From Eledone cirrhosa (lineage: Eukaryota): 64,000 bases of DNA. A program made the translations under genes and the position numbers. Positions 11,333 through 11,395 of the stretch are shown here, in pieces. Under the pieces are notes generated by a model. That model worked only from the letters and a program-made list of their open reading frames with translations. It did not search any database and was not told where the DNA came from. Position 1 is the first letter of the stretch, and each line of letters starts with the position of its first letter. The stretch spans positions 8,804,001 to 8,868,000 of the forward strand of contig OZ024764.1 of assembly GCA_964016885.1 (NCBI GenBank), read 5' to 3'.

Positions 11333-11395
11333 TATTTTATCTGATGAAAGCGTACCAATGTGTCTTGGTACCCTTGAAATATATATAATAAAATA
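11333..11395 (+). ncRNA. Type-I hammerhead ribozyme motif, intact (Penelope-like)
   Basis: Stem I TATTTTAT/ATAAAATA; CTGATGA; stem II AAG-c-GTACCAA/TTGGTAC-c-CTT; GAAA; stem III closed by palindromic ATAT; cleavage triplet ATA (11385-11387). Confidence 0.8.

Follow-up and report, generated by a model that had tools for sequence, protein, structure and literature searches.

A type I hammerhead motif near an EHBP1-family gene of Eledone cirrhosa is probably part of a truncated end of an abundant Hydra-clade Penelope-like element

Hammerhead ribozymes of Penelope-like elements (PLEs) have already been published as dispersed components of animal genomes, and they are the closest described relatives of the motif analysed here. 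In the portions of the literature drawn on here, a single minimal PLE hammerhead gave no cleavage and dimers gave low cleavage (PMC4209133), the same being stated in a review (PMC6765202), and a G10.1-C11.1 pair is named as typical of canonical hammerheads (PMC4209133). A monomeric hammerhead of the axolotl, HHR_Amex2, whose stem III has 2 bp, reached 22% cleavage within an hour according to the consulted part of its report (PMC7229834). For the Hydra clade of PLEs, section 11 of PMC8557442 gives as distinguishing marks DKT, a CxCx5C linker, the absence of CCHH, CxxC/CxH and (TA)n targets; the same source (Craig et al. 2021), as far as its consulted sections go, includes Hydra-1_Obim, the Hydra-clade PLE of Octopus bimaculoides, and describes PLE insertions with an inverted piece at the 5' end and a tail on one side.

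The stretch of DNA analysed here, hereafter the window, comprises 64,000 nucleotides of Eledone cirrhosa contig OZ024764.1 (assembly GCA_964016885.1, positions 8,804,001 to 8,868,000, forward strand). Its motif at 11333-11395 is very probably the hammerhead that an abundant Hydra-clade PLE carries in its terminal repeat, left here in a short truncated stub; as a lone copy it is predicted to have hardly any activity and is likely to be neutral as regards EHBP1. Direct reading of the sequence and a descriptor scan both recovered the type I hammerhead that a preliminary description had proposed, and the layout given there, with an 8-bp stem I, a 10-bp stem II containing one C-C mismatch, GAAA, an AUAU loop and an AUA cleavage triplet, was upheld. 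The type I hammerhead core (CUGANGA, GAA, A15.1-U16.1 and H17) is present around three helices with an open stem I (Table 1). Stem II runs from three pairs (A-U, A-U, G-C) through the C11351-C11372 mismatch to seven further pairs, and stem III consists of two A-U pairs, A15.1-U16.1 and U15.2-A16.2, which close the AUAU loop within the palindrome AUAUAUAU. A17 is at 11387, with the predicted cut at 11387/11388. In the predicted fold, an outer helix prolongs stem I beyond an internal loop, as it also does in a related copy at 4314.

Table 1. Coordinates of the hammerhead, of the element stubs and of the EHBP1-family gene features in the window.
Feature	Position	Strand	Evidence or remark
Sister PLE stub, other subfamily	4283..4418	+	86% over 138 nt; hammerhead at 4314
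Candidate EHBP1 5' UTR exon end, donor TAG/GTAAGA (cut at the slash)	6329..6388	+	Sequence-based donor candidate
Inverted distal half of PLE 3' tail	11155..11203	-	96% over 50 nt to the tail of copy L028
5'-truncated PLE 3' end (pLTR)	11202..11439	+	94.7% over 243 nt to ORF-bearing copy L032
Outer A-U-rich helix (~11313-11324 with 11401-11413)	11310..11416	+	Predicted fold
Type I hammerhead motif	11333..11395	+	Sequence, predicted fold, descriptor scan, cross-family covariation
Stem I	11333-11340/11388-11395	+	8 bp, all A-U
Core CUGAUGA	11341-11347	+	Sequence, descriptor scan
Stem II	11348-11358/11365-11375	+	10 bp plus C11351-C11372 mismatch, 6-nt loop
GAAA	11376-11379	+	Sequence, descriptor scan
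Stem III region, self-complementary 8-mer	11379..11386	+	2 bp in the monomer, 8 bp in an intermolecular duplex
First coding exon, EHBP1-family gene (MSVWKRLQRVGK...)	23676..23814	+	Piece of the run X4 contig

The hammerhead 61-mer has 68 exact copies in the genome, the 3' 32-mer across the cut site has 3,969, and a related-motif pattern with a stem II starting GG yielded 4,471 further, partly overlapping matches, while the reversed control of each pattern gave 0. Given these controls and a fold z-score of -2.5, the motif is not a chance match. The Rfam hammerhead models found no match at gathering score over the whole 64-kb window, recognising none of its hammerheads (11333, 4314, 54462 and 54545), and the seven Rfam matches at E ≤ 10 over 11100-11700 included no hammerhead. 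This miss is put down to the long stem II rather than to a false motif. As far as they are described in the consulted portions of PMC4209133 and PMC6765202, the minimal metazoan PLE hammerheads with palindromic stem III share with this one the type I topology, a larger helix II and a palindromic 15.2-16.2, as well as the occurrence of thousands of solo truncated-PLE copies, the dimer requirement and the presence of opposite-strand pairs 100-700 bp apart. The Eledone motif differs from them in having no bulged base between 9 and 10.1, an A-U closing pair in place of the canonical G10.1-C11.1, an 8-bp stem I and a conserved internal mismatch in stem II.

The stub that contains the hammerhead is 285 bp long and 5'-truncated (11155-11439). 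Its forward part (11202-11439) comprises the ~240 nt of the element that lead to the proximal end point, followed by TATAT, and it stops at the family's common 3' end point, which was found in most matching loci. The inverted piece, joined to the 5' end of this forward part and adjoining a (TA)n/(CA)n tract, represents ~49 of the ~98 tail nucleotides. The tail itself corresponds to the segment bounded by two start sites of reverse transcription that an in vitro study of another PLE describes (PMC11167929, consulted in part). Because the inverted piece stops short of the ribozyme, the ribozyme is unmasked, as had been claimed, and no antisense copy of it was found in the window. That the motif is special was not borne out: PLE ends like it number in the thousands, and 20 of 28 close loci are unmasked too, an inverted tail piece being present in 12 and a direct tail in 4 of the 28. 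Copies of the family stop at one sharp 3' boundary, beyond which (TA)n begins, but vary in where their 5' ends lie, and the 151-nt hammerhead region has at least 44 genome matches at 96-100%, with 40 of 1,338 candidates scored.

Relative to the column majority of its close copies, the stub carries six differences, none of them within the motif. The intactness of the hammerhead fits a young copy. Domestication of this copy as a regulatory intronic ribozyme of EHBP1, in the manner of the amniote intronic hammerheads and the CPEB3 ribozyme, would be in keeping with a motif free of private changes beside an upstream stub portion with six, but this imbalance is not significant and gives no indication of selection by the host (0/63 positions in the motif versus 6/165 elsewhere in the stub, Fisher p 0.19), the insertion is young, its 61-mer recurs 68 times, and it possesses no feature that its siblings lack. 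The self-cleaving motif on the sense strand, likely in an intron, does recall the amniote hammerheads and the HDV-like CPEB3 ribozyme (PMC7761336, PMC10919898, consulted in part); those ribozymes, however, are few and conserved across species in the sections concerned, whereas the present copy is young and belongs to thousands, and its stem III is predicted not to form alone. Domestication is therefore exceedingly improbable. The hammerhead is no gene-specific device; it is an ordinary copy of a known kind of element.

Long copies elsewhere in the genome define this element as a succession of hammerhead, tail, ~200-nt leader, a single ORF for reverse transcriptase (RT) and C-terminal GIY-YIG endonuclease (VVY...YVG), ~1-kb 3' UTR and a second hammerhead, and their coordinates indicate a full unit of ~3.5 kb. 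A hammerhead region lies downstream of the ORF in 47 of the 65 distinct loci picked by endonuclease protein (49 of 67 rows, two loci being in duplicate), and the core lies ~245 nt ahead of the ATG in 13 of 20 loci picked by ORF start. A pLTR with a hammerhead on both sides of the ORF in partial tandem, 5' truncation, an inverted 5' piece and an optional tail are likewise those of EN+ PLEs; the stub in the window is itself without an ORF. The longest open frames among the copies read span 637-699 aa, none fully intact. Pfam returned a weak GIY-YIG match on the element ORF (E 0.0014, below the cut-off) and found no RT match there. DKT and CxCx5C each occur in three of the four ORF pieces scanned and CKLC in one of the four, CKLC and CRH having also been read in translations of further copies, and the endonuclease has a single cysteine between VVY and YVG and no CCHH cysteines.

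These motifs, together with a reading of the published alignment, match the Hydra clade, to which the element would accordingly be assigned on sequence grounds; the flanks of the stub and of the family copies also agree with insertion into (TA)n. In the consulted parts of PMC8557442, Hydra-1_Obim and other Hydra-clade PLEs have the same C-terminal GIY-YIG, DKT, CxCx5C, missing CCHH and CxxC/CxH, and Hydra-clade PLEs likewise use (TA)n targets, place a hammerhead close to the 3' end and show inverted 5'-truncated pieces as well as a one-sided tail. Placement in the Neptune/Nematis clade was dropped on the linker, DKT and the missing CCHH. The Eledone element nevertheless departs from the Hydra-clade PLEs of that source in its larger unit (~3.5 kb versus under ~3 kb), longer tail (~98 nt versus 30-40 nt) and apparently in RWR/RWC in place of the RWK described for the clade; at the matching N-terminal place, copy L049 has RLRWC and the DNA of copy L048 reads RLRWR. 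Its stem II has 10 bp with a fixed C-C mismatch against 3-7 bp without mismatch in the Hydra motifs of File S2 of PMC8557442, and its stem III has 2 bp, all A-U, against 3-4 bp there. By these sequence comparisons, the family of the window element is distinct from the Hydra-clade relatives named. Inverted hammerhead pairs of other subfamilies lie ≤3 kb upstream of the long copies L048, L053, L055 and L057, a pattern suggesting that the same TA tracts have been targeted more than once.

Linkage to this coding element also bears on whether the stub could instead be a non-autonomous retrozyme, built of tandem 200-400 nt units and expressed as circular RNA. A type I hammerhead in a short dispersed PLE-related repeat is what metazoan non-LTR retrozymes also present (PMC7229834, bioRxiv 10.64898/2026.07.22.740005, both consulted in part), but they differ from the present case, which has no short tandem unit and is tied to a coding PLE. 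No head-to-tail short units were found in the 28 close loci, the sole same-strand neighbour among them belongs to another subfamily's inverted pair, and the variable 5' ends continue into PLE 3' UTR and ORF. Non-LTR retrozyme identity was rejected on the lack of ORF-less tandem units of 200-400 nt and on the contradicting ORF linkage, and there is scarcely any chance that it applies; a truncated end of a coding PLE is the preferred reading.

Conservation across the element's relatives indicates that the ribozyme structure is selected at the level of the element lineage. N7 varies in 11 of the 49 ORF-linked rows and every other core position in 0-3, the 18 of 67 rows without a downstream match being left out of these counts. 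Across nine family representatives, both partners are substituted in 15 of the 22 pairs, as high a score being reached in 0 of 500 shuffles and the slid controls falling far below, in a set picked by hand from different families in which kinship inflates the score. The stem III 8-mer remains self-complementary in other families through G/C or G-U changes, which is what the dimer model predicts. One such family (L053:608-691, L055, L034) has G/C at the four inner positions of a still self-complementary 8-mer and is a natural, stronger dimer interface and thus a better substrate for dimer assays.

Stem II shows a further regularity among 92 distinct motifs, which were chosen by core, self-complementary 8-mer and a stem I of at least 5 bp, so that conservation of the palindrome holds by construction, and which are dominated by one family rather than being independent events. 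Position 4 is unpaired in 88 of the 92, most often as C-C (73 motifs). By contrast, each of positions 1-3 and 5-7 forms a pair in 82-92 motifs, several kinds of pair being represented, and A-U stands at position 7 in 87; the 10.1-11.1 pair is A-U in 58, G-C in 14, G-U in 10, U-U in 5 and another combination in 5. Position 4 is also unpaired in all nine family representatives. Since the mismatch is retained even where stem I and all of the flanking pairs vary between families, a function is suggested, common descent being a possible explanation too. The mismatch was found neither by a literature search nor in the consulted Hydra table (PMC8557442), and the literature on dimeric PLE hammerheads may contain it. 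When stem II was allowed to shift so that a base bulges out after A9, this register came out best in only two listed motif types, neither of them that of the window. Together with the outer helix, the conserved mismatch could stabilise the fold. It is very unlikely that PLE hammerheads constitute a subtype in which the fixed C-C loop, with the near-fixed A-U at position 7, docks stem I in place of loop 2 and in which solo sense intronic copies are cut in trans when family transcripts pair with them by way of the palindromic stem III; if true, PLE expression would be coupled to the cleavage of many host pre-mRNAs, that of EHBP1 among them.

The hammerhead shares its strand with an EHBP1-family gene recognised by its NT-C2 and CH exons, in accordance with the preliminary description, the NT-C2 match of a later exon having an E of 7.6e-4, below the Pfam cut-off. 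In run X4, a contig of 1,950 nt aligns with 23676-23814 and with 27525-27677 in separate, spliced pieces; the kind of this run is not recorded, and we read it as cDNA because one contig falls into exon-sized pieces. The 60 contig nucleotides ahead of 23676 have no place in 23300-27900, so that EHBP1 has an upstream exon, which sustains the earlier proposal of a 5' UTR exon somewhere upstream. A crude repeat mask, whose library consisted of the loci collected in the analysis, left 14 non-repeat segments in 1-23,700. One of them contains the candidate donor at 6388, and apart from a donor in a LINE ORF they contain no other good one; the surrounding 6315-6460 has one match in the genome. It is thus plausible that the hammerhead lies in intron 1 of EHBP1, within a candidate 6388-to-23676 intron. 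A scan of the 80 kb upstream of the window located an 843-aa plus-strand frame (contig positions 8764001-8766529) that ends ~37.5 kb before the window and is likely a large exon of an upstream gene, which bounds the start of EHBP1 without fixing it. This frame is of low complexity, and its only match, to YL1, is weak and below the Pfam cut-off.

Potential partners for such a hammerhead are scarce in the window. The nearest same-strand copy, at 4314, is 7 kb upstream, which also places it ahead of the candidate first exon. It retains the AAG/CUU closing pairs and has lost U16.1, both as previously described and in agreement with the descriptor scan, and it retains the C-C mismatch; it is predicted to be inactive owing to the C in place of U16.1. 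This defective hammerhead belongs to the only same-strand family copy upstream in the window, and the next intact same-strand hammerhead, 43 kb downstream, is part of an inverted pair.

In the element's own cycle, two hammerheads of a tandem transcript would pair by way of their palindromic stem III, and cleavage at each AUA site would release unit-length RNA. The element endonuclease would have nicked a (TA)n tract at the site of the stub, where reverse transcription may have started at the family's proximal end point and halted after ~240 nt, a second priming at the distal end point presumably adding the 49-nt inverted tail. Since the resulting stub has neither an ORF nor an intact same-strand partner, the intron would in most cases be spliced out before stem III could form. 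Secondary-structure ensembles in five sequence contexts, from a folding model that leaves out tertiary contacts and Mg2+, gave a probability of ~0.001 for stem III in the monomer and of 2e-5 to 4e-4 for the active fold, with a predicted active fraction of about 3e-4. Stem I had a pairing probability of 0.26-0.38 in four of the five contexts, falling to 0.02-0.03 in the remaining one. Conformations in which stems I and II were both present and the core was open made up only 0.3-4% of the ensemble, and the intermolecular 8-bp stem III duplex amounted to -3.2 kcal/mol. A lone copy is therefore predicted to cut EHBP1 RNA poorly or not at all, and the idea that it is likely to cut the pre-mRNA was not supported, a 2-bp palindromic stem III requiring a second hammerhead. 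Against this prediction, a stem III of 2 bp may permit some activity of the monomer, as the axolotl HHR_Amex2 shows.

The PLE stub might still cut a measurable share of EHBP1 pre-mRNA, either as a monomer assisted by tertiary contacts or in trans, when another transcript of the family pairs with it at the palindromic stem III, and so alter or lower expression as a side effect. Such activity would be consistent with an intact core in sense orientation to EHBP1 with no antisense arm, a likely position within a 17-kb first intron, potential partner loci numbering in the thousands and a conserved C-C mismatch that suggests a contact outside the model. Opposed to it are the low pairing probability of an all-A-U stem I, the A-U pair at 10.1-11.1, the small open-core fraction of the ensemble and the weak dimer duplex quoted above; a cut intron, moreover, can still undergo splicing. 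Published PLE hammerheads are also slow even as dimers in the consulted portions of PMC4209133 and PMC6765202, and appreciable cutting of EHBP1 pre-mRNA is unlikely. On the favoured reading of a nearly silent copy, the single locus matters little, being a typical truncated PLE end, and its value is that of a clean, unmasked test substrate for a lone hammerhead and for the role of the C-C mismatch. If lone intronic PLE hammerheads are silent, this would explain how genomes tolerate thousands of them in introns.

Several other repeats were observed in the window. Two hammerheads of another PLE family form a head-to-head pair at 54330-54645, with cores at 54462 (-) and 54545 (+), in a (TA)n tract of an EHBP1 intron, where each arm masks the other. 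An older stub of the same element as that at 11333 lies at 41930-42063 (-) and comprises the end and tail without the hammerhead (81% to copy L028). A common (CAT)n-headed repeat at 11445-11700 starts 5 nt past the 3' end of the stub, at the same TA target, and a related repeat stands before the 4314 copy. Fragments of LINE ORF2, which we take from reading their translation to be of Tx1/L1 type, lie in tandem inside an EHBP1 intron (30154-31602 and 28257-29547), and a short-unit minisatellite forms two long arrays on opposite strands (1664-3184 and 55001-55966), at both ends of the locus.
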